DNA of 64,000 bases from a virus, in the IMG/VR virus record IMGVR_UViG_3300042324_002009, positions 1 to 64,000 of that record; one strand, given 5' to 3'. Positions 3,721-64,000 of this stretch are shown one piece after another. A model generated the notes under the pieces. That model was not told the origin of the DNA, made no database searches, and saw only the letters and a program-made list of their open reading frames with translations. The translations under genes were made by a program, and so were the position numbers. Position 1 is the stretch's first letter. Every line of letters starts with the position of its first letter.

Positions 3721-4214
3721 TAATTTAAAAAATAGGTAAGTTCTTGATCTGGGTCAATATCTTGTACTGTATAGAATTTATATAGTTTTTTCTCAGAATC
3801 ATAATCCCAATTGATATTAGGAGACGTGGATTTTCTGTAAATTGAGCCAAAGCCTAATAGGATTGCATGAGAATCGATATGCAACATTTTATTTGGATTG
3901 ATTACATCATATACAATTGCTTTAAATTGCTCTGCTGAAATAAGACCGCGATCTAGCCTCTCCTGTAAATTAAGATCTGCCAGTTTTTCAGCAATCTCGC
4001 GCTCTTTATTAAGACCGTCTGGATTAACAAACAGCCGGTTATCTAATACTTGATCGTGGTTTTTAAGTAAAAGTTGAGTTTTTTGGCTTATTGGAATCCA
4101 TGCACAAAACTCAATGGTTGAATTTCTATAAATTTGAGCACTACTAAATACGCCAAATTCTTTAGAATTTATAGGCTTTACATATAAACTAGATAGGATG
4201 CTTGGGTTACTCAT
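3720..4214 (-). CDS. SET-domain protein with degenerate catalytic motifs
   Basis: FGVFS...I near N-terminus, GFGSIYRKSTSPN (cf. NHSxxPN), QDIDPDQELTY (cf. DIxxGEELTxxY). Confidence 0.7.
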   Translation of the reverse strand: MSNPSILSSLYVKPINSKEFGVFSSAQIYRNSTIEFCAWIPISQKTQLLLKNHDQVLDNRLFVNPDGLNKEREIAEKLADLNLQERLDRGLISAEQFKAIVYDVINPNKMLHIDSHAILLGFGSIYRKSTSPNINWDYDSEKKLYKFYTVQDIDPDQELTYFLN

Positions 4215-5319: not shown

Positions 5320-5320
5320 T

Positions 5321-5992: not shown

Positions 5993-6008
5993 TTGTGTAT
6001 TTGTATTT

Positions 6009-7544
6009 TTATATCGAATTTAGCAGATCATCATAATCCGCAGAAGTTCGATGGGCTTGGACTGGTACTGGCATGGCTAGTGCAACATCCATTGGTATTA
6101 AATTTTGAGGTAAAGTTGTAGTATTCGTATGAGCAGTTTGATATTGAGTTCTCATTTGATTTTCAAGAGACTGAGTATCATCGTCATCTGAATAAAATTC
6201 GCTAGCTGGATCGTATTCTTCAGTTAGTTTAGCAAACTCATAACTCATTCTATACATTTTAAAACTTTCAGTATAGCCACCATCTCTATTTGCAATTAAC
6301 TTAATTTTCATACGCTTTTCCATAGGTCCACGAATTAATCCAAATAGAGAATCTACTGTGTGTACTAGACCAAATGATTCAGCAATATCTGACATACTTA
6401 AGTCCTGATCATCAACTGCATCTCGTTTAATTTGCGTTGCTGTAATAATACACCATTCATTTCGGATTGCAACTGCTCTAAGTTCTTCAGAAATAACCTT
6501 GATCTTTTCATAAGTATTGCCTTGCTCACGAAGAGGTCTCATTAAGTTAATATAGTCAACTACAATTACGGTAAATTTAATTCCAGAATTTTGTTGAACT
6601 TTTAAAAAGTAATTTTCTACATCAATTGCTGAGGCAGTTCCAGTAGGAAATTCCTTAACGATTAATTGGCCAAGCTGAGGCATATCTAACTTAAGCTTTT
6701 GTATTTTACTAGTAACTTCAGACACTTGATTATTATCTAGCATTGAATCATAGTCCTTAAACGGAATGCTTAATATGCTTGAACCAAGCCTCTTCATGTA
6801 TTTACGATCAGACAATTCAAGCGTTCCAATTCCTACATGACAACCTGCCATAAATGCTCTGGCTGCAATATTTGAAAGAACCATTGATTTACCTACTTTA
6901 GGCCTTCCTTGAAAAACTACTAACGTTTTTGGATTCCAACCGCCGCCTAAGGTTTTATCAAAGAATGGGAAGCCTGTTGGATTTCCAATTTTTGAAAGTT
7001 GAACGTGATCAATTGAGGTAAAAAAGTTTAGGCCGGATTCAGCGCTAGTAAATGAAACGTTTAATTTGCTATTAAATTTTTCTCTAACATCATTTGTAAT
7101 TAATTCAACATTCTCCGGATTAATATCGGTTGTCTTTAAATACGACAATACATCAATTACTGATGCATTTAAGTTTTTATAGAAAATAAAAGCTTTTGTG
7201 TATTTAAAAAGAAACTCATAATTATAACTAGATAAGTCTACTTCAAATAGTGAATTAAATTTTTGTTCTGAAATATCTAGATTTGAAAGATTTGCAATTT
7301 GGCGTAATTCATTTCGAGTTGGAATTTTAGAATATTCAATGAACCATTTTTTAGCTTCACGATATAGTCTTTGTAGGGTATCATCGTTAAAGTAATGAGC
7401 TTTAATTAATGGAATAACTTCTCGCTTGTCTAATGAGTCAAAGTTCTTAGGTTTAATGATTACATCATTATCGTCTTCGGTTAGAACAAAGTTAAAAATT
7501 ATTTTTTCGAGAAGCTCAATGTTCTCTTTGAAATCTATCATCAT
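6009..7544 (-). CDS. gp41: gp41/DnaB-like replicative helicase
   Basis: PTGF..FD...GGW, Walker A GRPKVGKS, VVDYINLM, TATQ, IAESFGL. Confidence 0.93.
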   Translation of the reverse strand: MMIDFKENIELLEKIIFNFVLTEDDNDVIIKPKNFDSLDKREVIPLIKAHYFNDDTLQRLYREAKKWFIEYSKIPTRNELRQIANLSNLDISEQKFNSLFEVDLSSYNYEFLFKYTKAFIFYKNLNASVIDVLSYLKTTDINPENVELITNDVREKFNSKLNVSFTSAESGLNFFTSIDHVQLSKIGNPTGFPFFDKTLGGGWNPKTLVVFQGRPKVGKSMVLSNIAARAFMAGCHVGIGTLELSDRKYMKRLGSSILSIPFKDYDSMLDNNQVSEVTSKIQKLKLDMPQLGQLIVKEFPTGTASAIDVENYFLKVQQNSGIKFTVIVVDYINLMRPLREQGNTYEKIKVISEELRAVAIRNEWCIITATQIKRDAVDDQDLSMSDIAESFGLVHTVDSLFGLIRGPMEKRMKIKLIANRDGGYTESFKMYRMSYEFAKLTEEYDPASEFYSDDDDTQSLENQMRTQYQTAHTNTTTLPQNLIPMDVALAMPVPVQAHRTSADYDDLLNSI

Positions 7545-7550
7545 ATTTTT

Positions 7551-7889
7551 TTAATTCGAAATTATATAAAATTTTAAAAATTCAGATTGGTCAATTATTA
7601 TAAATTCACCTTTCTTAATTAGGATATTGTCTTCTATTAAGTCTTTCATTAATAGTTTTAGTTTTTCTAAAAATTCAGCAGTTAGTTTATCTCCAAATAC
7701 ATATTTTAGAGTCTTTGTTGAAAACTTAATATCTTCTAGGTCAAATTCTTTAGATTTGACTTGAGTAACTTTGACAATGTATGACAGGATATCGAATACA
7801 AAGTCTTGCCTAGTTGGATAGCTAGGCAAGGCTGTATGCGACTCTAGTAAGTATTTAAGAGGAATATTTGGCTGTAATTTAAAGGTCAT
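7551..7889 (-). CDS. hypothetical protein
   Basis: 112-aa ORF overlapping the uvsX stop; same position as T4 gp40 but no recognised similarity. Confidence 0.7.
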   Translation of the reverse strand: MTFKLQPNIPLKYLLESHTALPSYPTRQDFVFDILSYIVKVTQVKSKEFDLEDIKFSTKTLKYVFGDKLTAEFLEKLKLLMKDLIEDNILIKKGEFIIIDQSEFLKFYIISN

Positions 7890-9069
7890 TATCAGAATCA
7901 GTTAAATCTTCTAATTCGTCTATTTCCATTTCGTCTATTCCATCTTGTGTTTCAGGGAATTTAAACGTAGGCTTAATTGTAGTTTCGTCTAACTGCGTTA
8001 ATACTTCATGAGTAAATAACCTAGCTGAGAAAAATTCTTTAACTGGAACAGCATCACCATTATGCTTAATGATATAGGTTTTTCCAAGTTTTTTTGGTAG
8101 AAAATAGAAAGTCTCTCCAGCTACTTCAAATTTTGAACATAATTCAGATTCGTCTGGTTTTAGTTTAGAGAATTCCTTTTCAGTTAACTTATTACCTCTA
8201 CCTACTCCACATGATTCCCAATTAACATATTGTTCAAGGCCTACAAATTGATTCATACCTTTATGGAATGAAATATGGAATTCAATATCAATAGGTCGAG
8301 CTAAACGATTCTTTTTAGTTTTAGAACGAACAATAATTCCAGTAGTGGTTTTAGCTTCATCACGAAGAGTTCCTTTACTCAACATTAAGATAATTGATGC
8401 AGAGAATTCTGGACCTCCACCGCCTGACATACCCTTTGGCGTATATTGATCCATTGAGGCATATGTGTGGTTTGTAAAAATAAATGGAACTTTATAATTT
8501 GAAAGATCCAAAGTTAATGATTTGAATAGTGACCTCATTTCTTTTGCACGAAGTCCCATATCTGCAGCGTTTTTACCTGCATCCATATCACGTTGACTTT
8601 TATCAGTATCAAGCATGCCTACTGAATCTACAAATAGTGCAATCTTAAGTCCTGGATTCTCCTTAATTGTTTCAATTAAGTCATGCACATAAAATTTAAC
8701 TTCGCTAATAAGACCCATACGTAAATATTTTAATTTACTTAAGTCTACTCCAAATTTAACATAGTCACTTGAATCAATTGCACCTTCAGTGTCAATATAA
8801 ATTACCATGTAATCCATTTTTTGTAATTCACGAACTGCATTTAAACATAGGAATGTTTTACCTGAACCTGAATCTCCAGCAATTCCAATACTTCGAGTAT
8901 TAGGATAACCTCCAAATAAGGATCCTGACATTTGTGCATTTAATAAGTAATTTCCAGTTGGAATGTACTCTTCAATATCAGAGAAGCCTCTGATTTCAAT
9001 TTTTGATTTGACTTTTTTCTCGAGCAAGTCGTTAAACTTGGCGAATGCGTCCATTGTTGATTTTGCCAT
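7879..9069 (-). CDS. uvsX: UvsX/RecA-like recombinase
   Basis: GDSGSGKT, DTEGA, VDSVG, NHTY, SGGGG motifs; acidic C-terminal tail. Confidence 0.95.
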   Translation of the reverse strand: MAKSTMDAFAKFNDLLEKKVKSKIEIRGFSDIEEYIPTGNYLLNAQMSGSLFGGYPNTRSIGIAGDSGSGKTFLCLNAVRELQKMDYMVIYIDTEGAIDSSDYVKFGVDLSKLKYLRMGLISEVKFYVHDLIETIKENPGLKIALFVDSVGMLDTDKSQRDMDAGKNAADMGLRAKEMRSLFKSLTLDLSNYKVPFIFTNHTYASMDQYTPKGMSGGGGPEFSASIILMLSKGTLRDEAKTTTGIIVRSKTKKNRLARPIDIEFHISFHKGMNQFVGLEQYVNWESCGVGRGNKLTEKEFSKLKPDESELCSKFEVAGETFYFLPKKLGKTYIIKHNGDAVPVKEFFSARLFTHEVLTQLDETTIKPTFKFPETQDGIDEMEIDELEDLTDSDNDL

Positions 9070-9094
9070 GTGTATAAAATTAATATTTTAGTAT

Positions 9095-9122
9095 CTTTTA
9101 CAAAGGATACTAAAATGGGTTT
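9095..9122 (-). promoter_or_regulatory. putative non-late promoter (AAAC-N17-GTAAAAG) overlapped by an 11-bp inverted repeat
   Basis: Motif upstream of uvsX; ATTTTAGTATC (9085-9095) / GATACTAAAAT (9106-9116). Confidence 0.5.
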
Positions 9123-9684
9123 AGTTAAAATATGAAACTAACAAAAATGCTCCAGATAAGACGGTTGCGTCTGAATAATCTCCATTTACAATTTGGTGAA
9201 AACCTACCTTTGTAATAGTAGAGTTTTCTTTTGTAAAATGATCCTTTGAGAGGTTTCGAGTAAACAAAATATTTGGAAGGTTAGTTAGGTCAATTCCATA
9301 ACAGTGCATACTTAAAGTCATTGGAACATTCATTGAAATATCTCCAAGATAAAATATACTATTTTCGGTGAGACCTGTATCGTCAAGGTTAAGTCCAGCC
9401 TCTTCAAGTAGTGCTCTACATACTGAATCGTATGGAGTCTTATCTAAATCTGGATTAACTACATCAATTATAAGAGTGCTAGCATTCTGTTTATTCATTA
9501 GATTAGGCGAGTCTAAAAGAAAAATAGACTTGAGCCCATCATTTGAATTACGTTCAAATGGTATTAAACAAATATAGTCTAGCTCGCACGATAGGTAATG
9601 AGTTGAGTGTTGATCTTTGGTTAAAGCCAATATGTTAAAGTTTCCTATTTTGCTAGGAGTTTCATTAGATATTTGATTATGCAT
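9121..9684 (-). CDS. Nudix-fold protein with degenerate Nudix box
   Basis: TPYDSVCRALLEEAGL resembles REUXEEXGU, followed by YLG strand. Confidence 0.6.
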   Translation of the reverse strand: MHNQISNETPSKIGNFNILALTKDQHSTHYLSCELDYICLIPFERNSNDGLKSIFLLDSPNLMNKQNASTLIIDVVNPDLDKTPYDSVCRALLEEAGLNLDDTGLTENSIFYLGDISMNVPMTLSMHCYGIDLTNLPNILFTRNLSKDHFTKENSTITKVGFHQIVNGDYSDATVLSGAFLLVSYFN

Positions 9685-10345
9685 TAGCTGTAGATTTTTT
9701 AGTAGGTGTTGTACTCAACATTTTCTTCATAGTCTTTTTAATTGAGTCCGCCGTTACATTGTTATTTATATAGTCAGACAATTTTGTCAAAAACTCTTCT
9801 TTATTCTTAGAGTTTGAATACATCATCTTTAATAAATTTTTACTAGGTAATTTAATTTTAACTGAAAGAGCTAAATCGGTGTCTTCTAGTGAAAACATAC
9901 CAAATAAGTCACCTGGATCAGTAGAGACCTTAAGTTGAGCCGGTTGAGATGGAGGTGGAGCTATTGGTTTTGGTGCAATAATTTCAGCCCTAAATTCGGC
10001 TGGAATTTCTTCAGTTACTTTAAAATCTTCATTTAATGAAGGAATGTAATTGATTGACTGAATTTCAGCCATTGACATTGGCTGTTGATCTTCAGTGATC
10101 ATCATTAGGTCAGAAGAAACTCGGTCAGTATCAAGTTGAGTACCGTCTGATAGTATTGCCATGAATCTGCCATTTCTAGCCGGCAAAACATCTCTAACTT
10201 GGACTACTTTTCCTAGTTTAGTTTTATCATTGGTTTTTATCCATTGAAAGTCGTTTGATTGGAAGCTGCTTTTTATTGCAACTAAGGTATCAATATCGTA
10301 GTTATTCATAATTAGGTTTTTTATTTTTTTAAGCCACTTTTTCAC
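9677..10345 (-). CDS. hypothetical protein
   Basis: 222-aa ORF with Pro-rich linker, overlapping the polymerase stop; no polymerase motifs. Confidence 0.75.
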   Translation of the reverse strand: MKKWLKKIKNLIMNNYDIDTLVAIKSSFQSNDFQWIKTNDKTKLGKVVQVRDVLPARNGRFMAILSDGTQLDTDRVSSDLMMITEDQQPMSMAEIQSINYIPSLNEDFKVTEEIPAEFRAEIIAPKPIAPPPSQPAQLKVSTDPGDLFGMFSLEDTDLALSVKIKLPSKNLLKMMYSNSKNKEEFLTKLSDYINNNVTADSIKKTMKKMLSTTPTKKSTANA

Positions 10346-11711
10346 TTGACAATTGTTCTTCTAATTTTTTCATTTGATTCTTTGTGTCTACTCGACCATT
10401 ATACAGTTTAGTAAGAATTGTTCGAGCAGCTGAATCCATTTTATTTGTGAAGACTGTATCGTTTTTTGTTAATATTTGGTCAGGTTGTAGTTCAACACCA
10501 GGTTTAATTTTTCCCAAATACGCATCTGGCGAAATATTAAATTGAATTTGAATGTTTGGATACATTGAGGCAAAGTCAAAACACGAAACATATTTGTAAT
10601 ATCCAGGCTCAGGCTTTGCAACATACGCTCCATCATACGTTGCATCTTCTTCTAAGTCTCTTCGATCATTTGCCATATAACGGCCTCTATCTAAAAACTC
10701 ACGACACATTAATGATTCAGTAATGAATACTGCTGAGAATACTTTTGAAACATCGACCTTTGCAAATTTTGAAATTGCAAATGCAACATCAAGTAGTCCA
10801 AGCTTATCTTCAATTAGTTTAATAAGAATTGTATCAATAATATTATACTTGATAAAGTTTTCAATATCTTGTTGAGCTTCCATCATGGTTGCATATTCAC
10901 TATGGAGTTTAGTTGTTCCTAATACTAGGTTAGCAATATAATCTAATTTATAATTCTCAACAACTTTATAGGGTTTAGTATTCATAAATACTTCCATGTA
11001 ATCTAAAAGACCTAAATGAATTGGCATTTTTGATTTACCAATTAAGGTTTTAGACGGCATAGTTTGCATTGGATCAATATCCAATTTTTTACAACGATTA
11101 ATTAGATAAATCCAGTCAAATCCAATAACATTCCAACCAGTTAAGAATGGAATTTTTGGAAGAACTTTATGGAAAAACGTTTTCATTAACTCTTCTTCAG
11201 TTTCAAAGAAAAGATATTTAAGGGTAAATGTTTGACCGTGTGCTTTAAAGTAGTCATTCACTTCATCTTGCATTTGTAAAATTGGAGACTCTTCCAATTT
11301 CTTCATGGTTGACATTACAAAACAAACATTGTCCTCATTAACAAAAGTAATTAAATTAACTGGCATTGCGGCTTTTGCCGGATCAGGAAACTCTTGTGAA
11401 GTTAACTGAATCTCAATATCTAAATAATATTTTTTTGGACTGTCATCTGAATAGATTGAAGCAAGTTCAGTTTCATCTAACCTAGTTTGGGTTAATTCCT
11501 CAAGCCTAAATTTACTTAACCATTTACCTTGAACTTTTTTTAGGAACTTTCCATCCCAGTTTCTGTGTTCAGTTGGGGTTGGGGTTAAGTTCCAATTATA
11601 AAGATCGTGTGGAAGTATAGGCTTTTTCATAAAGCCGATTGTACCATCTGGTTTATAATAAGAAATGACTAGAGTCGAGTCTTCTGTGTGAAATTCTGTG
11701 CTTACAATCAT
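10329..11711 (-). CDS. gp43: family B DNA polymerase, N-terminal subunit only (3'-5' exonuclease plus motif A)
   Basis: ExoI DIE, ExoII GWNVIGFD, ExoIII YNIID, YDGAYV, motif A DFASMYP; ends in the fingers with no motif B or C. Confidence 0.9.
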   Translation of the reverse strand: MIVSTEFHTEDSTLVISYYKPDGTIGFMKKPILPHDLYNWNLTPTPTEHRNWDGKFLKKVQGKWLSKFRLEELTQTRLDETELASIYSDDSPKKYYLDIEIQLTSQEFPDPAKAAMPVNLITFVNEDNVCFVMSTMKKLEESPILQMQDEVNDYFKAHGQTFTLKYLFFETEEELMKTFFHKVLPKIPFLTGWNVIGFDWIYLINRCKKLDIDPMQTMPSKTLIGKSKMPIHLGLLDYMEVFMNTKPYKVVENYKLDYIANLVLGTTKLHSEYATMMEAQQDIENFIKYNIIDTILIKLIEDKLGLLDVAFAISKFAKVDVSKVFSAVFITESLMCREFLDRGRYMANDRRDLEEDATYDGAYVAKPEPGYYKYVSCFDFASMYPNIQIQFNISPDAYLGKIKPGVELQPDQILTKNDTVFTNKMDSAARTILTKLYNGRVDTKNQMKKLEEQLSSEKVA

Positions 11712-29255: not shown

Positions 29256-30836
29256 TTAGATAGGTAGTTTGTCTTGTGGAATTTGTACCATTAGGCAATC
29301 AGTTGTGATTAATAAGCCGGCAATTGAAACTGCATTTTCTAGAGCAGTACGAGTAACTTTAACTGGGTCAATAATTCCAGCCTCAAACATATCTACATAC
29401 TCTTCAGTTTTTGCATTGTAACCAGGAGCTCCATTTTTAATTTTGTCCCAAACAATATCCGGATTAACTCCAGCATTTTCAAGGATTGTTTTAAATGGTT
29501 GAGCACAGGCTTTTTTAATTATTTCAATTCCCAATTCAATATCGCGGTTAGGCGAATGAATTGTAATTTGATCAATTGCTTTAAGTAGGGCAAGACCTCC
29601 ACCTACAACAATACCTTCTGCGATTGCAGAACGAGTTGCTCCAAGCGCATCATCAATACGGTCAGATTTTTCGCGAGCTTCAATTTCAGAAGTAGCTCCA
29701 ATTTTAATAATTGCAACACCGCCTTCAAATTTAGAAAGACGTTCTTTTAGTAAAATCTTTGGCGATTCACTTTCGCAAGCTTCAATTTGCTGTTTTAAAT
29801 CAGTAGTTAATATTGCAATTGCTGCTGCGTCTCCATGACCTCCAATAATTGTGGTTGTATCAGACGTAATTGTTACTTTATCGCAACTTCCAACGTAATT
29901 GGCAGCAATACTTTCTTTAAGAGTAACTCCATCCATTTCAGAAACAAGAGTTCCACCAGTTAAGGTTGCAATATCCTGTAATTTAGCACGGCGATTTTCT
30001 CCAAAACCTGGAGCTCTAACTGCAGCTACTCGTAGGGTACCCTGTAATTTATTAACCAACATTGTATTTAGGGCTTCTCCATCAACGCTATCACTAATAA
30101 TAAGTAGTGGACGGCGCTGTTTATTTGAGAATTCCAAATATTGAATTAAGTCTGCAAGATTTGAAATTTTACCATCGTACAATAAGATAATGGGTTTTTC
30201 AAATTCAACTGTATTCTTCTCTTGGTTATTTATGAAATATGGAGATAAGTAGCCATTTCCAAATAACATACCTTCAACGATTTCAACAAAGGTTTCGCCA
30301 GTTTTACTTTCGCCTGCTGTAATAATCCCGTCAAATCCAACTACTTTCATTGCATCTGCAATAATTTCGCCAATTTCCTCGTCATTATTTGCTGAAATAG
30401 TTGCTACCTGTTTGATTTTTTCAAAATCTTCAACTGGTATACTTTGAGATTTTAGGTTCTCAATAATTGCTTTCATACCGATTTCAATACCTTTCTTAAG
30501 GTCCATTGGATGAGCGCCGATTTCTACAAGTCGATTACCTTCAGTAAAGATTGCATGGGCCAGGACAGTTGCAGTAGTTGTACCATCACCTGCTTCTAGC
30601 GCAACTTTGTTTGCAACTTGCTTTACCATTTGGGCTCCAACATCTTCCATATAATTTTCGAGTTGAACTTCACGAGCAACGGTTACTCCGTCTTTTGTTA
30701 TTGCAACGCCATTGTCACGAGCAATAACTACATTACGGCCGCGTGGCCCTAACGTAACTTTTACAGCATCTGCTAATGCATTAATACCGGCTGCTAAATG
30801 CTGTCTAGCTTCTGCTTTAAATTTAGTTTGTTTCAC
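29256..30836 (-). CDS. groEL: chaperonin GroEL
   Basis: [46 protein letters not shown]; no GGM tail. Confidence 0.97.
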
Positions 30837-54586: not shown

Positions 54587-55939
54587 ATGTATAAAGATTT
54601 AACAAAAAGCCAGCTATTCGATAATGTAAAATTAGGATTTGAATTTGAATTCTTTTCTCCAATTTTACGTGCGGAATTAGCTGAGAAATTAACAACCATT
54701 TTAGGTAAAAAGGTAATTAGCACCAATGAGTATGGTTCAGATATTCCAGTAAGCTATGATACTTTTAAAATTGAACCTGATTTTTCAGGTGGATTTAAAA
54801 TGAATGAGCTAATTACTGGCGTAATGCCGTATAATGAAGCAATTCACGTATTATATAAAGTCTTAAATTTCATTGATGAAAACGGCTTTACTACTGAAAG
54901 AACTGGATTACACATAAACCTGTCATTAAATGAATTTGATCTTGGGCTAAATGAGCGTCTGCAAAATCTAAATGTATTTAAGTATATTCTAGGTCTTAAC
55001 GAAGAGAAAATATTTGAATTATGGCCATCTGCTAAATCAAGAATTCAAAAAATTTATAAAAATTCAGTTAGCAATATTTACCCTAAAACTAAATTCTTGG
55101 CTGAGACCTCAATCGATTATGCCCGACCAAACAGTCCACTTGATTTTTTATATCCTCAATCAAAGTATTTTGGTTTAAATTTTGAAAAGTTAAATGAAGG
55201 CTATTTAGAAATTAGATATGCTGGTGGAATTGACTATCAATTAAAAAGAGCAAGCGCAACTGAATTAATTAATTATATTGCTGAATCTCTGTACAATACG
55301 CTTCAAGTAAATCACTCATATTCAATTGATGAACAAAAGAAAGTTTACGAAGTGATGAAAAAGCAGAGAGAAAATACTTTAGCTATTAAAACTTATGAAA
55401 ATTTCAAAAAGAATTTTCCAGAAATAGAATTATTCATTGACTTAAGAGATGATCCGCGAATTATTGAATCTAATTATCTAAATCTTCGTGAAAAGCTATT
55501 TGACTTAATCACTTTTGGCAAAATCAAAAAGGGCCAAGTAAATTATGATACTCAAAATAAAAGGGTTCAATTAAAAGAGTCTAAATTAGAAGAAGGCTTT
55601 GGAATTCATGACATTGATATTATAAATTGCAAAATTGAAGCCGAAATTTCTAACTGTACTCTATATGGGTGCAAAGTTAGATCATCACATATCACTGAAT
55701 GTAGAATCTTAACCAGCAATGATATTAGATATTGTCATTTAGATGATTGTTTATTTGAGAGAGGGTGTCATAACCGAATTGACTTAAGCTATATTAAGAG
55801 TTCGCCTGAAGCAATTATATATGCAGACTTAAATGAGTGTATTGTTAGATCAGGAATTATTGCACTTGATTCAAAAGTTGATAATAAAACCGAAATTCTG
55901 TCCGGTAGTGCAAAAGGCAGTAAAAATCAAATAAAATAA
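54587..55939 (+). CDS. putative amidoligase (COOH-NH2 ligase family) with C-terminal beta-helix-like repeats
   Basis: GFEFEF, IEPD, ELITG, TGLHINLS, KYFGLN, YLEIRYAGG motifs. Confidence 0.75.
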   Translation: MYKDLTKSQLFDNVKLGFEFEFFSPILRAELAEKLTTILGKKVISTNEYGSDIPVSYDTFKIEPDFSGGFKMNELITGVMPYNEAIHVLYKVLNFIDENGFTTERTGLHINLSLNEFDLGLNERLQNLNVFKYILGLNEEKIFELWPSAKSRIQKIYKNSVSNIYPKTKFLAETSIDYARPNSPLDFLYPQSKYFGLNFEKLNEGYLEIRYAGGIDYQLKRASATELINYIAESLYNTLQVNHSYSIDEQKKVYEVMKKQRENTLAIKTYENFKKNFPEIELFIDLRDDPRIIESNYLNLREKLFDLITFGKIKKGQVNYDTQNKRVQLKESKLEEGFGIHDIDIINCKIEAEISNCTLYGCKVRSSHITECRILTSNDIRYCHLDDCLFERGCHNRIDLSYIKSSPEAIIYADLNECIVRSGIIALDSKVDNKTEILSGSAKGSKNQIK

Positions 55940-55986: not shown

Positions 55987-58900
55987 ATGGCAGTACAACT
56001 AAAAATCTCAAGTATTAAATCAATCAATGGTTCAAGTTTAAATACCATCATTGATTTGTCTAATTTCAACTTTAGCACAATTAAATCAGCAATTGATGAA
56101 TTCTTAACCTCAATTAATTATTCTCAAGTAGATGGTGAGATTGCAGTTGATATTCAAGGAATCTCAACCAATTCAATTATTATCAGAAATGGTTTAACTG
56201 TATATGGTACTCAACAACAAAATGGCAGCTATCCTGAAGTAATTAAAATGTATCCAACTGGTGCAATCACTGCAAAGAACGTTGTAGTTGAAGATGTACT
56301 TGAAGGAAAACGTCTTAGACTTAAGGTGTATGGAGTACTTCCACCAACTGCTGTTCCTGGTGAAATTGTTTATATTACTGCGCAGAATGGAAGAGTTGAA
56401 GGTTTTTATGGATATTTACAGTCGACTGGTTGGTGTTTACTTAGCTGCGGCGGAACTGGCGAAGGTATTTGTACAGCATCGGTTACTAGGTCAGTTACTC
56501 CAAATGTAATATCTGGAGATGGAGAATTATTATCACCTGGTCTATTACCAATACCTGCACCAATTGCAACAACCATGTACTTATTATTTGTTAATGGTCA
56601 TCAAATAACTATTGGAGATGGAGATATTAGCGCCAGTGCCTATTTTAGTAAAGATGGTGGAGTTACTGCAACTATATACGCTCAAGTCGATGTGACTGAC
56701 GAACTTTATTGGAACACAACCTCTGCTGGTTATGGATTAGATAGCGGAGACTTTGTTACCTTAATGTATTCAACAGTTGATGCAAATTGTGCTGGAGCAA
56801 ATGGTACTATTTGTATAACTAATATTTTAACTGCAGGTAATACTGAGTCAGTATTTGCTCAAGTTGGAGTTGATGTTATTATGGAGGATCCAGCTTCAGC
56901 TAATTGCCCAATTACTGTGTGCACTTTACCAATTCCAACAATTGAGCCAGAGGGAATTGATTTACCATATGGATATTTTTTAACTAATTCAGTTTTGGCT
57001 TTTGATATTTCTACTAGCTGCGCAGGTTGTGCACTTATTGGATTTGGATTACCTCAAACAATGACTGAAACTGAATTTGATTCAGTTAGAATTTTTGAAG
57101 AAATTAGCGGAGTTTATACAGACGTTACTATTTTAACTGGACCGTATGCTCCAAATTATTCTACTCGTACAATTTATGCAGAGATTTGCGATTTTGGAGC
57201 ATTTTATTTGATACCAGTAGACTCAGCGATACCAACTACAACTACGACAACTGCTGCGCCTACTACCACTACTACTGCTGCTCCAACTACCACTACTACA
57301 ACTGCGGCGGCAACCACTACTACAACGGCTGCACCTACTACTAGTACAACAACCGCTGCACCTACTACTAGTACAACAACCGCTGCTCCGACTACTAGTA
57401 CAACAACGGTTGAGCCTACGACTACAACAACGGTTGAGCCTACGACTACAACAACTATTGAGCCTACGACTACAACTACCACAACTAGAGTTGACCCTAC
57501 TACTACAACAACTGAGGCTCCGACTACTAGTACAACAACTGTTGCTGAAACTACTAGTACAACAACAGTAGGTGAAAGAACTACCACTACTACAACTAGG
57601 TCAGGCGAAATAACTACAACTACCACAATTAGTTGTGATGGATTTATTGCAACTATTAATGGACCTGGTCCATTTGATATAATACTAGATGGCTTTGATG
57701 GAATTGGATATACAATTACACAAGATGGCTCAGATATTACATCCGGTACTCTACCGGATTCTTTACCTGGAATCGGATTAGCAATTGAAAAGCTTTTAAC
57801 AATTACGTTAGCGAATGGATGCGTATTTACCTATGCATTTGACGAAGGTTTAGGGACTTGGGAGTTATTTACTGGATCAACTACTACAACGACAACTGAG
57901 GCTGCAACTACTAGTACCACAACTGCCGCTCCTGAGCCAGCTACAACCACAACAACGGTAGCTCCTACTACAACAACAACAACTGAGGCTTCAACTACGA
58001 GTACCACAACTAAGGCTGAACCTACTACAACTACAACAACACTGACGGAAATATTTAGAAGTATAAATTGCGAAACTTCAACTGTTATAAATATTGACTT
58101 TACTACAATATTAGCAATAACTCCAGAAATTGGACAAGTTTATTACTTAACATTTGACGACAGTAGCGAGGGTTGTTATACAATATTGTCAAGTGCTACT
58201 GGAACTGCTAATCGTATTGCAAATACAGCAAGCGATCCTATTGCTGACTGTATGAGCTGTCTACCAACTACAACTACAACAACAATAGCCCCTACTACAA
58301 CTACCACAACTGAACCAATATCCGAACCTACGACTACTACAACACTAGAGCCTGGGCTTACCACTACTACAACCGCTGAACCTAGGCCTACAACTAGTAC
58401 AACAACGGTTGAACCTACAACTAGTACAACAACGGTTGAACCTACAACTAGTACAACAACGGTTGAACCTACAACTAGTACAACAACGGTTGAGCCTACT
58501 ACAACTACCACAACAACGGTTGAGCCTACTACAACTACCACAACTGAACCAATATCCGAACCTACGACTACTACAACAACGGTTGAACCTACAACTACTA
58601 CAACAACTAGAGTTGACCCTACTACAACTACCACAACTGAACCAATATCCGAACCTACGACTACTACAACAACGGTTGAGCCTACTACAACTACCACAAC
58701 TGAACCAATATCCGAACCTACGACTACTACAACAACGGTTGAGCCTACAACTAGTACAACAACTAGAGTTGACCCTACTACAACTACAACAACGGTTGAG
58801 CCTACAACTAGTACAACAACGGTTGAGCCTACAACTAGTACAACAACAATAGCCCCTACTACAACTAGTACAACAACGGTTGAACCTACAACTAGTACAA

Positions 58901-59280
58901 CAACAATAGCCCCTACTACAACTAGTACAACAACCGTTGAGCCTGAATTTGAAACTACTACAACCACAACAGCTGAGCCTACAACTACCACTACAACGGT
59001 ATTTGATGGAGAAGTTACAACTACGACTACCGCAAATCCTTGCAACTGTGTATCCGTTGAAAATACAATGGATGGACCAAACGACTTTGACTATACAGAC
59101 TGTGACGGTAATTTACAAATGACTCAAATTGCAGCATTTACTACAGTTAGTTTATGTGTACTTAGCTATCCGGATAATGCAATATTTAATGTTACCCCAA
59201 GCGGAAGTTGTGCATTTAATGGAGAAATTTGGAGTTGCGTAATTGGTGAAACTACTACAACTACAACAAGGCGACCATAA
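55987..59280 (+). CDS. mucin-like Thr-rich late protein with Cys-containing globular domains
   Basis: Three poly-Thr/Pro/Glu tracts separating small Cys-containing domains; late promoter upstream. Confidence 0.8.
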   Translation: MAVQLKISSIKSINGSSLNTIIDLSNFNFSTIKSAIDEFLTSINYSQVDGEIAVDIQGISTNSIIIRNGLTVYGTQQQNGSYPEVIKMYPTGAITAKNVVVEDVLEGKRLRLKVYGVLPPTAVPGEIVYITAQNGRVEGFYGYLQSTGWCLLSCGGTGEGICTASVTRSVTPNVISGDGELLSPGLLPIPAPIATTMYLLFVNGHQITIGDGDISASAYFSKDGGVTATIYAQVDVTDELYWNTTSAGYGLDSGDFVTLMYSTVDANCAGANGTICITNILTAGNTESVFAQVGVDVIMEDPASANCPITVCTLPIPTIEPEGIDLPYGYFLTNSVLAFDISTSCAGCALIGFGLPQTMTETEFDSVRIFEEISGVYTDVTILTGPYAPNYSTRTIYAEICDFGAFYLIPVDSAIPTTTTTTAAPTTTTTAAPTTTTTTAAATTTTTAAPTTSTTTAAPTTSTTTAAPTTSTTTVEPTTTTTVEPTTTTTIEPTTTTTTTRVDPTTTTTEAPTTSTTTVAETTSTTTVGERTTTTTTRSGEITTTTTISCDGFIATINGPGPFDIILDGFDGIGYTITQDGSDITSGTLPDSLPGIGLAIEKLLTITLANGCVFTYAFDEGLGTWELFTGSTTTTTTEAATTSTTTAAPEPATTTTTVAPTTTTTTEASTTSTTTKAEPTTTTTTLTEIFRSINCETSTVINIDFTTILAITPEIGQVYYLTFDDSSEGCYTILSSATGTANRIANTASDPIADCMSCLPTTTTTTIAPTTTTTTEPISEPTTTTTLEPGLTTTTTAEPRPTTSTTTVEPTTSTTTVEPTTSTTTVEPTTSTTTVEPTTTTTTTVEPTTTTTTEPISEPTTTTTTVEPTTTTTTRVDPTTTTTTEPISEPTTTTTTVEPTTTTTTEPISEPTTTTTTVEPTTSTTTRVDPTTTTTTVEPTTSTTTVEPTTSTTTIAPTTTSTTTVEPTTSTTTIAPTTTSTTTVEPEFETTTTTTAEPTTTTTTVFDGEVTTTTTANPCNCVSVENTMDGPNDFDYTDCDGNLQMTQIAAFTTVSLCVLSYPDNAIFNVTPSGSCAFNGEIWSCVIGETTTTTTRRP
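57232..57627 (+). repeat. coding tandem repeats (PTTSTTTAA / PTTTTTVE)
   Basis: ACT/ACA-rich imperfect 24-30 nt units. Confidence 0.85.
58264..59034 (+). repeat. coding tandem repeats (PTTSTTTVE 27-nt unit; recurring EPISEP block)
   Basis: CCTACAACTAGTACAACAACGGTTGAA in tandem from about 58387; GAACCAATATCCGAACCTACGACTACTACAACA four times. Confidence 0.9.
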
Positions 59281-59287
59281 CTTACCT

Positions 59288-59314
59288 AAACTCTATTAAG
59301 GTAGTTAGTATAAT
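59288..59314 (+). promoter_or_regulatory. putative non-late promoter AAAC-N16-GTATAAT, 5 nt before the ATG
   Basis: Perfect copy of the motif directly upstream of the glycosyltransferase. Confidence 0.6.
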
Positions 59315-59319
59315 TTATT

Positions 59320-60273
59320 ATGTTAACAAAGAAGACTATTTTTATATCAGCACAGCCTGACCATCAATACTTCCATTGGCAAGTTGAGGTGGTAATCCAC
59401 AATTTTATGAAAAATGGAATTAATCCAAATTGGATAGAAATTCTATTTGCCTATAATGACGAGCCTAGCCAAGAAGGTCTTGCCCTAGCTAGAAAATATC
59501 CAATGGTTAGATTCTTTTTCTATAAAAAAAGAATAACTCAAAACTTTGGATACATTCCAATTCTTAGGCCTGATATTCTTGAACAGCATTGGATAAAATA
59601 TCCAGAATTACGTGGTGAAACCGTTTTTTATCATGATTCAGATATTATCTTTAGAGAACTTCCAGATTTCGACTCAATGCATGACAATTTATATTGGTAT
59701 GTAAGTGATACCGTTTCTTATATTGGCGCAAATTATATTAAAAGTAAATCAGAAGACCTATTCATTGACCTTTGTAGTTTAACAAAAATTTCTCCTGAAA
59801 TAGTAGAAAAAAATCAAGAAGGGTCAGGCGGTGCTCAATATTTAATGAAAGGCGTTACTTCTGACTTTTGGAAAGAGGTAATTTCAGATTCATTAACTAT
59901 GTATAAGTATATGGCAGATAGAGAAAGTCAAGAACGCAATACATTAACACCAGAAGAGTTAAAAATCTATAATCCTGTACAAAAATGGTGTGCGGATATG
60001 TGGGCAGTTCTTTGGGGTGGCTGGAAAATTGGTGCACAAACAATAATTACACCTGACTTAAATTTTAGTTGGGGAACTTCCTCAATTGAGGATTATGACC
60101 GTTGTACAATTATGCATAACGCTGGAGTAACAGATGATAGAAAACCTGATCTTTTTTATAAAGCAGATTATCGAGAATCAAGCCCGTTTAATGCGGATCT
60201 TTCAAATATTAAACCTAATACAGCTTCTGCTAAGTACGTAGATGCAATAATTTACGCAAAAGAAAATAGATAA
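59320..60273 (+). CDS. GT-A glycosyltransferase resembling plant HPAT (GT95) / SGT1 (GT96) protein O-glycosyltransferases
   Basis: YFHWQ near N-terminus, Y.P..RP, DxD motif HDSDIIF, GGAQYLM, WCADMWA, IMHNAG. Confidence 0.7.
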   Translation: MLTKKTIFISAQPDHQYFHWQVEVVIHNFMKNGINPNWIEILFAYNDEPSQEGLALARKYPMVRFFFYKKRITQNFGYIPILRPDILEQHWIKYPELRGETVFYHDSDIIFRELPDFDSMHDNLYWYVSDTVSYIGANYIKSKSEDLFIDLCSLTKISPEIVEKNQEGSGGAQYLMKGVTSDFWKEVISDSLTMYKYMADRESQERNTLTPEELKIYNPVQKWCADMWAVLWGGWKIGAQTIITPDLNFSWGTSSIEDYDRCTIMHNAGVTDDRKPDLFYKADYRESSPFNADLSNIKPNTASAKYVDAIIYAKENR

Positions 60274-60304
60274 ACCGGATCTGCCTTATCGCATACAGTA
60301 TACT

Positions 60305-60313
60305 GATAAATAA
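60305..60313 (+). promoter_or_regulatory. late promoter GATAAATAA
   Basis: 30 nt upstream of the first collagen-like gene. Confidence 0.6.
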
Positions 60314-60343
60314 CTGTAGGTAGAAAAATGCAAGTCCAGTATA

Positions 60344-62341
60344 ATGTCTAATAAACTCAAAATAAAACAGGTTGATCTTAGCAACCTAAGTCAAGATAAT
60401 TCATTAAATAAGTTTTTGGTAGTTGATGCTGCTGGTAACGCTTATTATAGTGATTCTCCTGGTGCCGGTTCTGGTGGTTCTGGCTCAAATGGTACGTCGG
60501 GTACTTCAGGTACAAGTGGCCAAGACGGTTCAACTGGTACATCAGGCTCAGATGGAACTTCTGGTACTTCAGGTACAAGTGGCCAAGATGGTTCAACTGG
60601 TACTTCTGGTTCAGATGGAACTTCTGGTACTTCAGGTACAAGCGGTCAAGATGGTTCAACTGGTACTTCTGGTTCAGATGGAACTTCTGGTACTTCAGGT
60701 ACAAGCGGTCAAGATGGTTCAACTGGTACTTCTGGTTCAGACGGTACGTCAGGTACTTCAGGTACAAGCGGTCAAGATGGTTCAACTGGTACTTCTGGTT
60801 CAGACGGTACGTCAGGTACGTCCGGTTCTTCTGGAACAAGTCCATTAGGTTTTTCTTCTGGTACTTCTGGTTCAGATGGAACATCTGGTTCAGACGGTAC
60901 TTCAGGTACAAGCGGAGAAGCAGGTTCTTCAGGTTCAGATGGAACTTCAGGTACAAGTGGCCAAGACGGTTCAACTGGTACTTCCGGCTCAGACGGAACA
61001 AGCGGTACTTCAGGTATAGATGGAACTAATGGTTCAGACGGAACTTCAGGTACTTCTGGAATTGATGGAACTAATGGTTCAGATGGAACTTCAGGTACTT
61101 CTGGAATTGATGGAACTACTGGTTCAGACGGAACTTCAGGTACAAGCGGACAAGACGGTTCAACTGGTACTTCTGGTTCAGACGGAACTTCTGGAACAAG
61201 TGGTGATACTTTTACTTATCCAACTGATTTAATTGTTTCATTAACTGGAGGTAGAACTTTTGGACGTTATGTAAGCGGTAGTACTATTCCAGCAACTGGA
61301 AAAACTGCAGCTGAGGTAATTAGTTTAGCAATTGCTGAGCCAATTACTCCAACTGTTGCTCTAACTTCTAGCACATCAATTGCGTTTAATCAAACAGCAA
61401 TTAGTAATGTTCTAAATTTTAGTCATACTATAAATAGTTTAGGAGCAACAATTAGTAGTGTTTCTCTTGAATGGCGAAGAGGCGGTGCAGGTTCATGGGT
61501 AGTTTTATCAACCTCAACTACTACGCCAAGTACATTTACACATTCACTCACCGATACTAATTATAATACCTCTGCTTTTAATTACAGATATATTGTAACT
61601 GATTCAATTGGTGCAACTGCGACTGCTACTTTAAATATTACGCCAATCGCATATTCAGCACCATCAATTTCCTTAACAGTTGCTGCAGTTTCAAGTACTT
61701 CACCTGAAACAAATACAAAAAGAGAAAAAGGAAATATTAATACTAATTTAAGCGGAACTATTACCAGAAATAGTGTAAACAGTGCCTTATCTAGTTATAC
61801 TTTACAATACTCATTAAATAATAGTTTATGGGTAGATATTGGATCAGAGGTATCAATTGGTCCAGGTACTTCAAGCATTACATTAACTAATCATAATGAT
61901 ATTACGTTATTTGCGTCAACTACCATCTATTATAGAGTAAAAGTAATTGATGCATATCAAACATCCTTATCAAGTTTTGCAACTGGTGGAAATACCACAG
62001 TTAGTTTTTTAAATCTAATATTTTACGGACCATCATCCGCAGTTCCAACAACTTCAAGTGATATTAGAGCACTAGGATCCCGAATATTTACGGATGGAAG
62101 TAATCCATTTAATTTATTAACGGGTACTACTCAAATCAATTTTACAGCAGCAATGCCAGCTACACTAAGTTTAAGCAGTGTAGTTGACTTAGATGCATTA
62201 AACGCAGATATTACTGGAAATTATGTTTTATCAACATTTAATGTAGTTGACTCCTACGGTACTAACGTATCGTATCGTAACTATACCATGACAAATGCGA
62301 CTCCTTATGGAACATCGCATCGACACCAAATAACTAGATAA
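60344..62341 (+). CDS. collagen-like (Gly-X-Y, Ser/Thr-rich) fibre protein with C-terminal beta domains
   Basis: About 80 GTS/GSD/GQD/GST triplets followed by Ig/FN3-like region. Confidence 0.8.
60473..61210 (+). repeat. Gly-X-Y coding repeat with 63-nt (21-aa) and 45-nt (15-aa) higher-order units
   Basis: [21 protein letters not shown] about five times in tandem, then [15 protein letters not shown] units; one PLGFSS interruption. Confidence 0.9.
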
Positions 62342-62347
62342 TAGAAT

Positions 62348-64000
62348 ATGTCATTAACTCCAGGATTACAATTACCGTATGGTATACAGCCGGTTAACCC
62401 AGTACCAGTAGATGCTTGGTCCGGACCTTATACCGGGGCAAACGAAACTGCTGCGATTGCTGCAGCAAATACAGCGATCCTTTCAGCCATCCGTTTTCAA
62501 TCAATGGAAGTCCGCCTTATCTTCGGCGGCAGCTCTCATAAATATTGGTACCGTGATGGAGTATTAGATACAGATTTAGTAGAATTTGCATCAGGTAGTG
62601 GAACTGCTGGCACAGCCGGTAGTGCAGGAACAAGCGGAACCTCTGGAGCCTCAGGCTCAGATGGAACTTCAGGTACTTCAGGTATAGATGGAACTAATGG
62701 TTCAGACGGAACTTCAGGTACTTCTGGAATTGATGGAACTAATGGTTCAGATGGAACTTCAGGTACTTCAGGTATAGATGGAACTAATGGTTCAGACGGA
62801 ACTTCAGGTACTTCTGGAATTGATGGAACTACTGGTTCAGACGGAACTTCAGGTACTTCTGGAATTGATGGAACTAATGGTTCAGATGGAACTTCTGGAA
62901 CATCAGGATCAGATGGAACAAGTGGTACTTCAGGTATTGACGGAGTCTCTGGAACAGATGGTAGCTCAGGTACTTCAGGAGAATCCGGCTCAAATGGAAC
63001 AAGTGGTACTTCAGGAGAATCCGGCTCAAATGGAACAAGTGGTACTTCAGGTTCAAATGGAACAAGCGGTACGTCAGGTATAGATGGAACAAATGGTTCA
63101 AATGGAACTTCCGGTACAAGCGGTATTGATGGAGTCTCTGGAACAGACGGTAGCTCAGGAACTTCTGGCGAATCAGGTTCAAACGGGTCAGATGGTACGT
63201 CCGGTACGTCAGGCTCAAATGGAACTAGTGGTACTTCAGGTTCAAACGGTACTTCTGGAACTTCTGGTTCCAATGGCTCAAACGGGTCAGACGGAACTTC
63301 GGGTACGTCAGGCATTGACGGAGTCTCTGGAACAGATGGTTCTAGTGGAACTTCAGGAGAATCAGGCTCAAATGGAACTTCTGGAACTTCCGGTTCAGAT
63401 GGTACAAGCGGAACTTCAGGTTCAAATGGAACTTCTGGTACGTCTGGAATAGACGGAACAAATGGTTCAGACGGAACTTCCGGTACTTCAGGTATCGATG
63501 GAGTCTCTGGAACTGACGGTAGCTCAGGTACTTCAGGAGAATCAGGTTCAAATGGTTCAGATGGAACAAGCGGAACTTCAGGATCAGATGGAACTTCAGG
63601 ATCAGATGGAACATCTGGTACGTCCGGTATAGATGGTACAAATGGAGAAGATGGTTCTTCTGGAACAAGTGGTAGTTCAGGCCTAAGCGGCGTAGACGGT
63701 TCAAGCGGAACTTCAGGCTCAACTGGTTCAGATGGTACTTCAGGTTCAAATGGAACAAGTGGAACTTCAGGATCAAATGGAACAAGTGGAACTTCCGGTA
63801 CTGCTGGAACTTCTGGAACAAGCGGAATAGACGGAACAAACGGTTCAGACGGTACTTCAGGAACAAGTGGAATAGACGGAGTCTCTGGAACAGATGGTAG
63901 CTCTGGAACTTCTGGCGAATCAGGTTCAAATGGAACAAGTGGAACTTCAGGTATAGATGGAACTAATGGGTCAGATGGAACAAGTGGAACTTCAGGTATA
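62348..64000 (+). CDS. second collagen-like Ser/Thr-rich fibre protein, truncated by the window end (not in ORF track)
   Basis: ATG at 62348: MSLTPGLQLPYGIQPVNPVPVDAWSGPY...FASGS then Gly-X-Y triplets to the end of the window. Confidence 0.85.
   Translation, partial: MSLTPGLQLPYGIQPVNPVPVDAWSGPYTGANETAAIAAANTAILSAIRFQSMEVRLIFGGSSHKYWYRDGVLDTDLVEFASGSGTAGTAGSAGTSGTSGASGSDGTSGTSGIDGTNGSDGTSGTSGIDGTNGSDGTSGTSGIDGTNGSDGTSGTSGIDGTTGSDGTSGTSGIDGTNGSDGTSGTSGSDGTSGTSGIDGVSGTDGSSGTSGESGSNGTSGTSGESGSNGTSGTSGSNGTSGTSGIDGTNGSNGTSGTSGIDGVSGTDGSSGTSGESGSNGSDGTSGTSGSNGTSGTSGSNGTSGTSGSNGSNGSDGTSGTSGIDGVSGTDGSSGTSGESGSNGTSGTSGSDGTSGTSGSNGTSGTSGIDGTNGSDGTSGTSGIDGVSGTDGSSGTSGESGSNGSDGTSGTSGSDGTSGSDGTSGTSGIDGTNGEDGSSGTSGSSGLSGVDGSSGTSGSTGSDGTSGSNGTSGTSGSNGTSGTSGTAGTSGTSGIDGTNGSDGTSGTSGIDGVSGTDGSSGTSGESGSNGTSGTSGIDGTNGSDGTSGTSGI
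62600..64000 (+). repeat. Gly-X-Y coding repeat, about 155 triplets within the window
   Basis: [21 protein letters not shown] triplets; no interruption noticed by eye. Confidence 0.9.

Follow-up and report, generated by a model that had tools for sequence, protein, structure and literature searches.

Our literature search found documentation of phage particle glycosylation for mycobacteriophages only, the original study being, reportedly, that of Freeman et al. (2023, Cell Host Microbe). According to passages of PMC12619734 and PMC12363180, phage-encoded glycosyltransferases of mycobacteriophages (Che8, Corndog, and Myrna) act on the structural proteins of the phage itself, the glycans are located at the C-termini of the capsid and tail-tube subunits, and the glycosylation of the particle is reported to shield it from antibodies. 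In a passage of PMC12619734, four core groups of putative glycosyltransferases are also described for jumbo phages from aquatic environments. Here, we analyzed a window of 64,000 nucleotides (nt), the first 64 kilobases (kb) of an 81.7-kb IMG/VR virus fragment (IMGVR_UViG_3300042324_002009; CheckV completeness, 30%). At its end, a gene for a protein of 1097 amino acids (aa) laden with Thr is followed by a gene for a 317-aa candidate glycosyltransferase (hereafter, the enzyme) and by two genes for collagen-like proteins (Table 1). Comparison of sequences and gene neighborhoods made it fairly probable that the enzyme is a soluble, late, metal-dependent glycosyltransferase of the DxD type, which acts on the Thr residues of the poly-Thr tracts encoded upstream. 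The family of this enzyme is far more widespread than the mycobacteriophage system, and no description of it, or of a poly-Thr/transferase pairing in phages, was found in the literature search.

The pairing of the enzyme with poly-Thr genes would be a kind of phage self-glycosylation, closest to mycobacteriophage virion glycosylation, and this view was partly supported. As in the mycobacteriophages, the transferase gene lies within or beside the virion structural genes, and the siphophage members of the family have poly-Thr tails exactly where the passages cited above place the mycobacteriophage glycans. In contrast, none of the 77 homologue-bearing phage records (tblastn, thus at the BLAST level only) was from a Mycobacterium phage, and the acceptor signature here is a pure Thr run. 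Moreover, the acceptor in the window would be a separate 1097-aa protein rather than a capsid or tail-tube subunit.

Association of the enzyme gene with poly-Thr genes in viral loci

In the forward test, 80 IMG/VR loci with an enzyme homologue were drawn from at least 595 such loci, and runs of five or more Thr (T5) were counted. The WCADMW motif of the enzyme served as the search pattern for these loci as well as for the prokaryote genome loci described below. An open reading frame (ORF) with a T5 run was present in 68 of the 80 loci. Among the 78 loci with a gene upstream of the enzyme gene, 60 carried the run in the immediate upstream gene, in every case in the orientation of the enzyme gene; when the loci were grouped by enzyme identity, this was the case in 47 of 59 clusters at 90% and in 21 of 30 clusters at 70%. 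Only 1 of the 80 loci had a T5 run in the immediate downstream gene, and the other genes of the homologue loci had one in 39 of 1164 cases. The background was taken from 79 viral loci retrieved with an unrelated pattern, where 5 of 658 genes contained such a run.

After masking of the Ser/Thr tracts, the 61 upstream partners (the 60 and that of the window) fell into 12 homology groups, the largest of which had 32 members and the one including the window protein 13; homologous partners of the 1097-aa protein precede the enzyme gene in 12 related IMG/VR loci. Since the partners belong to 12 groups and include capsid and tail-tube proteins in isolate phages (see below), the Thr tract, rather than any particular protein, appears to travel with the enzyme. 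In the reverse test, the pattern was ten consecutive ACN codons (T10). In 58 of the 80 viral loci retrieved, the run fell within an ORF of 60 codons or more. The enzyme gene was present in 6 of the 41 T10 loci having at least 1 kb of downstream DNA, in all six cases immediately downstream and on the same strand.

A strong enrichment of the enzyme at poly-Thr genes, with a link specific in direction and position, is thus well supported by these gene counts. The co-occurrence with poly-Thr genes that the original prediction had expected was therefore found, with non-homologous partners as same-strand upstream neighbors. The prediction had also proposed that the phage glycosylates its own surface fibers. 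The co-occurrence supports the Thr-rich neighbor as the target, but it does not support the Gly-X-Y fibers in this role.

Poly-Thr tails in isolate phages

A tblastn search detected enzyme homologues in 77 of 50,697 isolate phage records, all with less than 60% identity; among them are phages of Lactobacillus, Enterococcus, Staphylococcus, Lactococcus, Clostridium, Chryseobacterium, and Arcanobacterium. We examined eight of these records (Enterococcus phages phiFL1A and VPE25, Lactobacillus phages iLp84 and Semele, Staphylococcus phage RQ1, Chryseobacterium phage MA9V-3, and phages phiCTP1 and 521B), and Thr tracts were found beside the enzyme gene in all eight. The enzyme gene is located among head and tail genes in phiFL1A, phiCTP1, iLp84, VPE25, and RQ1; it directly follows the major tail gene in the annotated siphophages phiFL1A and phiCTP1, and it comes after the major head gene and a small gene in iLp84, likewise an annotated siphophage.

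In phiFL1A and iLp84, both the major head protein and the major tail protein have poly-Thr C-terminal tails, while phiCTP1 has such a tail on the tail tube protein and none on the major head protein. An example from the capsid and tail proteins of phiFL1A and phiCTP1 is ...TTTTTKPTTTTTKPTTTTTTTQG. iLp84 also encodes a 126-aa protein with 40% Ser plus Thr, and a tail protein of VPE25 ends in ...TTTDTTTTTTTTTTAGK. The poly-Thr proteins of RQ1 and Semele are encoded directly upstream of the enzyme, and MA9V-3 has long Ser/Thr runs in two upstream proteins. The tract in 521B consists of PTTV repeats on an upstream Ig-domain protein and contains no T5 run. Altogether, the isolates with Thr-tagged capsid and tail-tube partners came from at least five host genera.

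Two small poly-Thr ORFs, both on the plus strand and immediately before the enzyme gene, overlap a structural gene. In VPE25 (locus L286), an unannotated ORF at 4728-4883 overlaps the 3' end of the probable capsid gene at 3553-4755; in RQ1 (locus L288), an ORF at 4614-4925 overlaps the 3' end of the major tail gene at 4223-4666. These ORFs look like C-terminal extensions that would be added by programmed frameshifting, in which case only some of the subunits would be tagged.

The 1097-aa poly-Thr protein

The expectation of a protein with hundreds of Thr held for the 1097-aa product, which contains 334 Thr (30%) and 31 runs of five or more, together with 76 Ser, 76 Pro, and 22 Cys. Its first 410 aa or so are free of Thr tracts; beyond them, five Ser/Thr-rich tracts alternate with Cys-containing stretches. 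The tracts are composed of degenerate 27-nt units (66-83% matches) and use all four ACN codons (ACA, 112; ACT, 104; ACG, 27; ACC, 22). Since the four codons are mixed within degenerate units, the tracts point to selection at the protein level rather than to a newly expanded microsatellite. No Pfam or PHROG family matched the protein. Because it is encoded among late, structural-looking genes, we infer that it probably forms part of the virion surface in glycosylated form.

Sequence and family of the 317-aa enzyme

The family phrog_4417, annotated as of unknown function, covers the 317-aa protein end to end. The predicted DxD motif was present as D106-S-D108, with both Asp residues invariant in an alignment of 47 sequences; W20, Y78, Y134, G171, W223, M227, F249, H266, G269, F279, and K281 were also invariant. 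In a second set of 93 sequences, the equivalents of both DxD residues were again invariant. The protein carries the sequence QKWCADMW at positions 221-228. No Pfam family (E up to 0.1), no NCBIfam family, and, by single sequence, no PDB relative was found for it, and a PDB profile search returned only chance-level matches to TALE repeats, with no significant stretch.

Homologues of the enzyme numbered 2054 proteins in a 90%-clustered collection, with 837 representatives at 50% identity; 132 loci were found in one-per-species prokaryote genomes, in addition to the viral loci described above. The enzyme of the window is a single-domain version of the family. In the 93-sequence set, 65 members had at least 150 aa beyond the enzyme domain, and 55 of these extensions formed one homology group. 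The additional Pfam domains among the 93 members were Glyco_transf_7C (15), GT2 (8), Glyco_tranf_2_2 (3), GT6 (2), GT29 (1), and GT25 (1), and in a separate scan of ten fused forms two carried glycosyltransferase domains (GT2 with Gly_transf_sug, or GT6). Alignment of the family with the second domain of the fused relatives (hhalign) covered only 16 columns around the DxD motif, with a probability of 1%. Since the DxD motif is invariant and the relatives are fused to, or clustered with, recognized glycosyltransferase domains, a transferase character is suggested. The fused relatives may represent a priming transferase often joined to an elongating one. No second transferase was seen among the scanned ORFs of the window, with 70% of the genome missing from the record.

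By reading of the sequence, neither the N-terminus (MLTKKTIFISAQPDHQYFHWQ) nor the rest of the enzyme contains a long hydrophobic stretch. Given that it has no N-terminal hydrophobic segment, the enzyme is presumably cytoplasmic.

Homologues in bacterial genomes

Among the 80 prokaryote genome loci examined, Ser/Thr runs were found in 25, including several contigs of metagenome-assembled genomes (MAGs). Six of seven Bacillota genome loci had the phage-like layout, with a poly-Thr gene beside the enzyme gene. The chromosomal homologues of Bacteroidota are 450-711 aa long and most are fused to a second domain; that of locus L213 is a single-domain protein of 325 aa.

LanC-like genes lie beside the homologues in L210, L213, L219, L225, and L248 (chromosomes of Pedobacter, Chitinophaga, Mucilaginibacter, Sphingobacterium, and Elizabethkingia), around positions 3000-11300. 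One of these genes scored above the Pfam cut-off (36.9 bits) and three were weak matches; an ATP-binding cassette exporter with a C39 peptidase is also encoded in L225. Small ORFs near the Bacteroidota homologues read as double-glycine leader peptides, for example one ending in ...GGNSASAFSSSGPNCTCKSGGTCTTKPPAQ. In their appearance, the Bacteroidota loci resemble clusters that would make a glycosylated peptide not yet described, and the likely substrate is again a peptide. Because they read as peptide-modification clusters, a protein or peptide acceptor would fit the enzyme family. They may be compared with the clusters for glycocin-type bacteriocins, in which, as would be the case here, a dedicated enzyme acts on a co-encoded peptide or protein. 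The Bacteroidota homologue loci have no poly-Thr runs, and their enzymes have a second domain (570-711 aa).

Comparison with plant HPAT and SGT1 enzymes

Hydroxyproline O-arabinosyltransferase (HPAT; CAZy family GT95, Pfam PF23452) and peptidyl-serine alpha-galactosyltransferase (SGT1/SERGT1; GT96) are plant and algal enzymes, those of plants being Golgi membrane proteins. The original prediction had placed the enzyme near them, a kinship that the profile searches failed to confirm. PF23452 missed the window protein and matched 3 of 140 family members, namely 1 of 47 in the first set (E 0.23) and 2 of 93 in the second (best E 0.019), all below the 23.9-bit cut-off. The same profile found nothing when the contig was searched in all six reading frames with an E threshold of 10, and PF23741 gave no match to the contig either. 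Against five Bacteroidota genomes, PF23452 gave short matches only (E 0.16-0.38), two of three with in-frame stops, and against 401 Bacteroidota genomes and 14 control genomes it gave no match.

The sole positive sign of kinship, which we take as a lead, came from the alignment-free neighborhood in a protein language model, where HPAT-labeled clusters lie close to the enzyme. Among the 30 clusters nearest to the window protein, 11 belonged to the PF23452-labeled set and 4 to DUF7164. One neighbor cluster of the window protein had the PF23452 label on 10% of its members, and the neighbor cluster of a 69%-identical relative had it on 58%, both at a cosine of 0.96.

Functionally, both the plant enzymes and the phage enzyme would attach the initial sugar to hydroxy-amino acids in extended proteins with repeats, and a DxD motif is present on both sides. 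However, no significant profile match to the 317-aa protein was obtained, its acceptor would be Thr and not hydroxyproline or Ser, and its setting is a phage and the bacterial cytoplasm. The plant enzymes are also membrane anchored, unlike the 317-aa protein, which on reading has no hydrophobic N-terminus.

Proposed function

Taken together, we propose that the enzyme is made late in infection, together with the late genes, and that its donor would be a nucleotide sugar of the host cytoplasm, bound via a metal that D106, D108, and possibly H266 coordinate. The sugar would then be transferred to the hydroxyls of Thr, and perhaps of Ser, in the disordered poly-Thr tracts of the upstream protein, and the 1097-aa protein would thereby be turned into a mucin-like glycoprotein. 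In the small siphophages, enzymes of the same family would act on the poly-Thr tails of the capsid and tail-tube subunits. By analogy with mucins and with the Pro/Thr linkers of glycoside hydrolases, the glycosylated tracts may serve as stiff, hydrated, protease-resistant spacers between the small Cys-containing modules.

Several observations weigh against this proposal. First, the enzyme matches no characterized glycosyltransferase family by sequence in the Pfam, NCBIfam, and PDB searches, so that its identity as a glycosyltransferase is itself drawn from motifs and context. Second, the homologue loci are mutually related; Fisher P values therefore overstate their independence, and the cluster counts are fairer. 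Third, the association is incomplete in both directions, as 35 of the 41 viral poly-Thr loci had no enzyme within the DNA stored, and 14 of the 78 homologue loci had no Thr tract in the three upstream genes. In these 14 loci, the neighbors of the enzyme gene read as GT2-like, Gly_transf_sug-like, radical-SAM-like, and methyltransferase-like genes, and in four of them a Thr-rich ORF was present elsewhere in the locus. Fourth, about 50 Bacteroidota chromosomal loci had no poly-Thr at all, among them loci of Chitinophaga, Pedobacter, Sphingobacterium, Mucilaginibacter, and Elizabethkingia. As read from these loci, this shows that poly-Thr is not the sole context of the enzyme family. Fifth, the 1097-aa protein matched no Pfam or PHROG family that would place it in the virion, and, with 30% of the genome in hand, other transferases or targets may be encoded elsewhere. 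Finally, the literature search found no paper reporting a glycan on these poly-Thr or fiber proteins; in the passages of PMC6563214 on L. brevis phages, virion mass spectrometry is mentioned and nothing is said on glycosylation.

If the proposal is true, many phages would have a sugar coat affecting immune recognition, stability, and adsorption, and biotechnology would have in the poly-Thr tail a glycosylation tag that can be moved between proteins. The Bacteroidota relatives would likewise indicate that a new class of peptides with glycosylation exists. The carriers of the enzyme/poly-Thr pair include culturable phages.

Alternative explanations

The two Gly-X-Y proteins that had been predicted downstream of the enzyme gene were recognized as collagen-like by Pfam (Table 1), and a third collagen-like gene follows beyond the window. 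They contain 79 (665 aa), 683 (2448 aa), and at least 1122 (at least 3977 aa) triplets. The triplets of the 665-aa protein occupy aa 47-289 (nt 60482-61210), contain no Pro, have mostly Thr or Ser at X and mostly Ser or Asp at Y; the remaining 375 aa or so, toward the C-terminus, are non-repetitive. The triplets of the 2448-aa protein are mostly G-T-S, G-S-D, and G-S-N. Across the collagen-like proteins, X is mostly Thr or Ser and Y mostly Ser, Asp, or Asn; Ser plus Thr make up 37-50% of the residues in the three proteins, and Pro is limited to 13-16 residues per protein. Like the collagen-like proteins of bacteria and phages (PF01391, tail-fiber PHROGs), they have long uninterrupted Gly-X-Y arrays in fiber-like proteins. 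They are unlike the PF01391 proteins in being almost free of Pro and dominated by Thr, Ser, Asp, and Asn, as well as in the extreme length of the fibers in this lineage (at least 1122 triplets in one gene). As the contig ends inside the third gene, the assembly probably broke in the repeat.

The Gly-X-Y fibers might also, or mainly, be the substrates of the enzyme, with sugars on Thr and Ser that would stabilize or coat long Pro-free triple helices. We regard this as unlikely, though worth entertaining. Glycosylated Thr stabilizes collagen helices in the cuticle collagen of a deep-sea worm, and the GXT collagen-like region of Bacillus BclA carries O-glycosylation. The fiber genes adjoin the enzyme gene in the same orientation with gaps of 70 and 6 nt, their products are rich in Ser and Thr with almost no Pro, and their order is the same in the closest relatives (L005-L016). 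The expected co-occurrence with such collagen genes was, however, largely confined to close relatives: Gly-X-Y runs of at least eight triplets were present in 13 of the 80 homologue loci, of which 11 were the closest relatives (L005, L007-L016) and all but two belonged to the lineage of the window. Further relatives (L017-L024), whose enzymes are 57-61% identical, have kept the poly-Thr gene upstream but have no collagen-like gene. In the reverse direction, the enzyme was found in 1 of 56 viral loci with a G-T-x collagen-like ORF, which is a weak test as the stored loci are 1-15 kb and the genes are long. The Gly-X-Y fibers are therefore lineage-specific neighbors of the enzyme, and they may be substrates.

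More doubtful still is the broadest version of the idea, namely a widespread, undescribed phage system that would place mucin-like O-glycans on poly-Thr 'tags' of capsids, tail tubes, and surface proteins by a cytoplasmic enzyme distantly allied to the plant enzymes that glycosylate extensins. In the phage of the window, this enzyme would also glycosylate Thr and Ser in the Pro-free Gly-Thr-Ser fibers, and the sugars would replace the helix-stabilizing role of hydroxyproline. In animal collagen, hydroxyproline stabilizes the helix.

It is also conceivable, but improbable, that the enzyme glycosylates a non-protein target, either the phage DNA at a hypermodified base or a host envelope polymer, and that its Thr-rich neighbors are coincidental. 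According to a passage of PMC12619734, DNA glucosylation and serotype conversion are the best-known roles of phage glycosyltransferases, and the window encodes a divergent thymidylate-synthase-family protein (986-1870, minus strand; 55.6 bits against an NCBIfam equivalog cut-off of 327), for which a divergent ThyA and a pyrimidine hydroxymethylase are both conceivable. This protein nevertheless matches PHROGs annotated as thymidylate synthase, and no other DNA-modification gene was seen among the scanned ORFs of the window, with 70% of the genome missing. The position of the enzyme gene argues in the same direction, as it lies in late or structural blocks and not in replication or lysogeny modules, directly after the major tail gene in two isolates, and is linked to poly-Thr in a specific direction and position. 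Furthermore, no membrane segment was apparent in the enzyme on reading, and members of the family are found in temperate phages (about 38 kb) as well as in lytic and jumbo phages, whose hosts have differing envelopes.

Slightly less probable again is a different chemistry on the same Thr tracts, in which the enzyme would be a Stealth-like sugar-1-phosphate transferase or another DxD enzyme of the nucleotidyl type. The enzyme has no significant match to any glycosyltransferase family, and faint Stealth_CR2 matches were obtained for 3 of 140 members (E 0.038-0.16); these are, however, at chance level, the fused and neighboring domains are those of ordinary glycosyltransferases, and the language-model neighbors are HPAT- and DUF7164-labeled clusters. 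That the adjacency is an inherited gene order without an enzyme-substrate relation is hardly credible: many of the 80 loci are related and one homology group accounts for 32 of the 61 partners, but the partners form 12 groups, capsid and tail-tube partners come from at least five host genera, and the conserved element is the Thr tract and not the protein that carries it.

Features and gene layout of the window

Table 1. Coordinates of the features at the enzyme locus (positions of the window; the third collagen-like gene lies beyond it on the same contig).
Feature	Coordinates	Strand	Basis
Gene for the 1097-aa 'beads-on-a-string' protein, proposed acceptor	55987..59280	+	ORF, composition
Thr tract 1, aa 412-552, PTTTTTAA / PTTSTTTVE-type units	57220..57642	+	Composition, repeat analysis
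Thr tract 2, aa 626-690	57862..58056	+	Composition, repeat analysis
Thr tract 3, aa 756-788	58252..58350	+	Composition
Thr tract 4, aa 798-1008, longest; PTTSTTTVE / PTTTTTTEPISE units; 27-nt tandem units	58378..59010	+	
Thr tract 5, C-terminal tail, aa 1085-1097, ...TTTTTTRRP	59239..59277	+	ORF, composition
Gene for the 317-aa candidate glycosyltransferase (phrog_4417)	59320..60273	+	ORF; phrog_4417 E 2.7e-64
Invariant D106-S-D108 (DxD), following the hydrophobic stretch ETVFYH	59635..59643	+	47- and 93-sequence sets
WCADMW motif, W223-W228	59986..60003	+	W223 and M227 invariant, W228 at least 90% (47 sequences)
Invariant H266 in HNAGV, candidate second metal ligand (putative role)	60115..60117	+	Alignment
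Gene for the 665-aa collagen-like protein, possible secondary substrate only	60344..62341	+	Pfam Collagen E 6.3e-33, tail-fiber PHROGs
5' part of the 2448-aa collagen-like gene, ending at contig position 69694	62348..64000	+	Pfam Collagen E 4.6e-71
Third collagen-like gene, at least 3977 aa, outside the window, running off the contig	69776 to contig end (81708)		

The four genes were adjacent and co-oriented, as predicted, with spacers of 39, 70, and 6 nt, and no terminator-like site was found between them on the plus strand. The repeats and motifs of their products are not chance features. Promoter-like sites in the region of 54-64 kb numbered 34, compared to 32.0 expected from shuffling, and were thus not in excess; for this reason, no operon boundaries were drawn from them. 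The cluster forms the end of a late-looking plus-strand block that starts at about 31.8 kb with a RuvC-like gene and a late-sigma-like gene (phrog_234), followed by very large proteins and fiber-like genes; the enzyme gene therefore sits among late or structural-looking genes. Two of the large proteins gave weak matches to the gp5 C-terminal domain and the T4 neck protein, both below the Pfam cut-offs. When the N-termini of the poly-Thr protein, the fibers, and the large neighbors were compared, no significant homology was found except for the Gly-X-Y repeats. The GC content is 29-36% across most of the window and 37-45% in the repeat-bearing last 8 kb.

Minus-strand ORFs at 57204-57626, 58176-59045, and 62536-63999, which would encode poly-Val and PEVP sequences, mirror the ACN and GGN-ACN-TCN repeats of the plus strand and almost certainly do not represent genes. 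Immediately before the poly-Thr gene lies a gene (54587-55939, plus strand) that matched Amidoligase_2 (Pfam, E 2.7e-07; 31.2 bits, cut-off 22), and its product is possibly a second protein-modifying enzyme in the late block.

The replication genes in the window encode PolB, a DnaB-like helicase, a RecA-like protein, a gp32-like protein, ribonucleotide reductase, and the ThyA-family protein mentioned above. A tail sheath protein and a chaperonin are encoded as well; the latter is a full-length GroEL-type protein (29256-30836, minus strand; Cpn60_TCP1, E 2.3e-67). Since the record is an 81.7-kb fragment estimated to be 30% complete and the close relatives in IMG/VR sit on contigs of 252-271 kb, it is plausible that the window derives from a jumbo phage, with a full genome of perhaps about 270 kb. 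Among the genome contigs, the closest enzyme (85% identical, with a poly-Thr gene upstream) was found on a 254-kb contig of an uncultured Bacteroidetes MAG (L203, CAIWBA010000291.1). This contig probably represents the genome of a jumbo phage that was binned into the lake Bacteroidetes MAG of its host. Along with the 40% match found for a Chryseobacterium phage, it hints that the window phage infects Bacteroidota.

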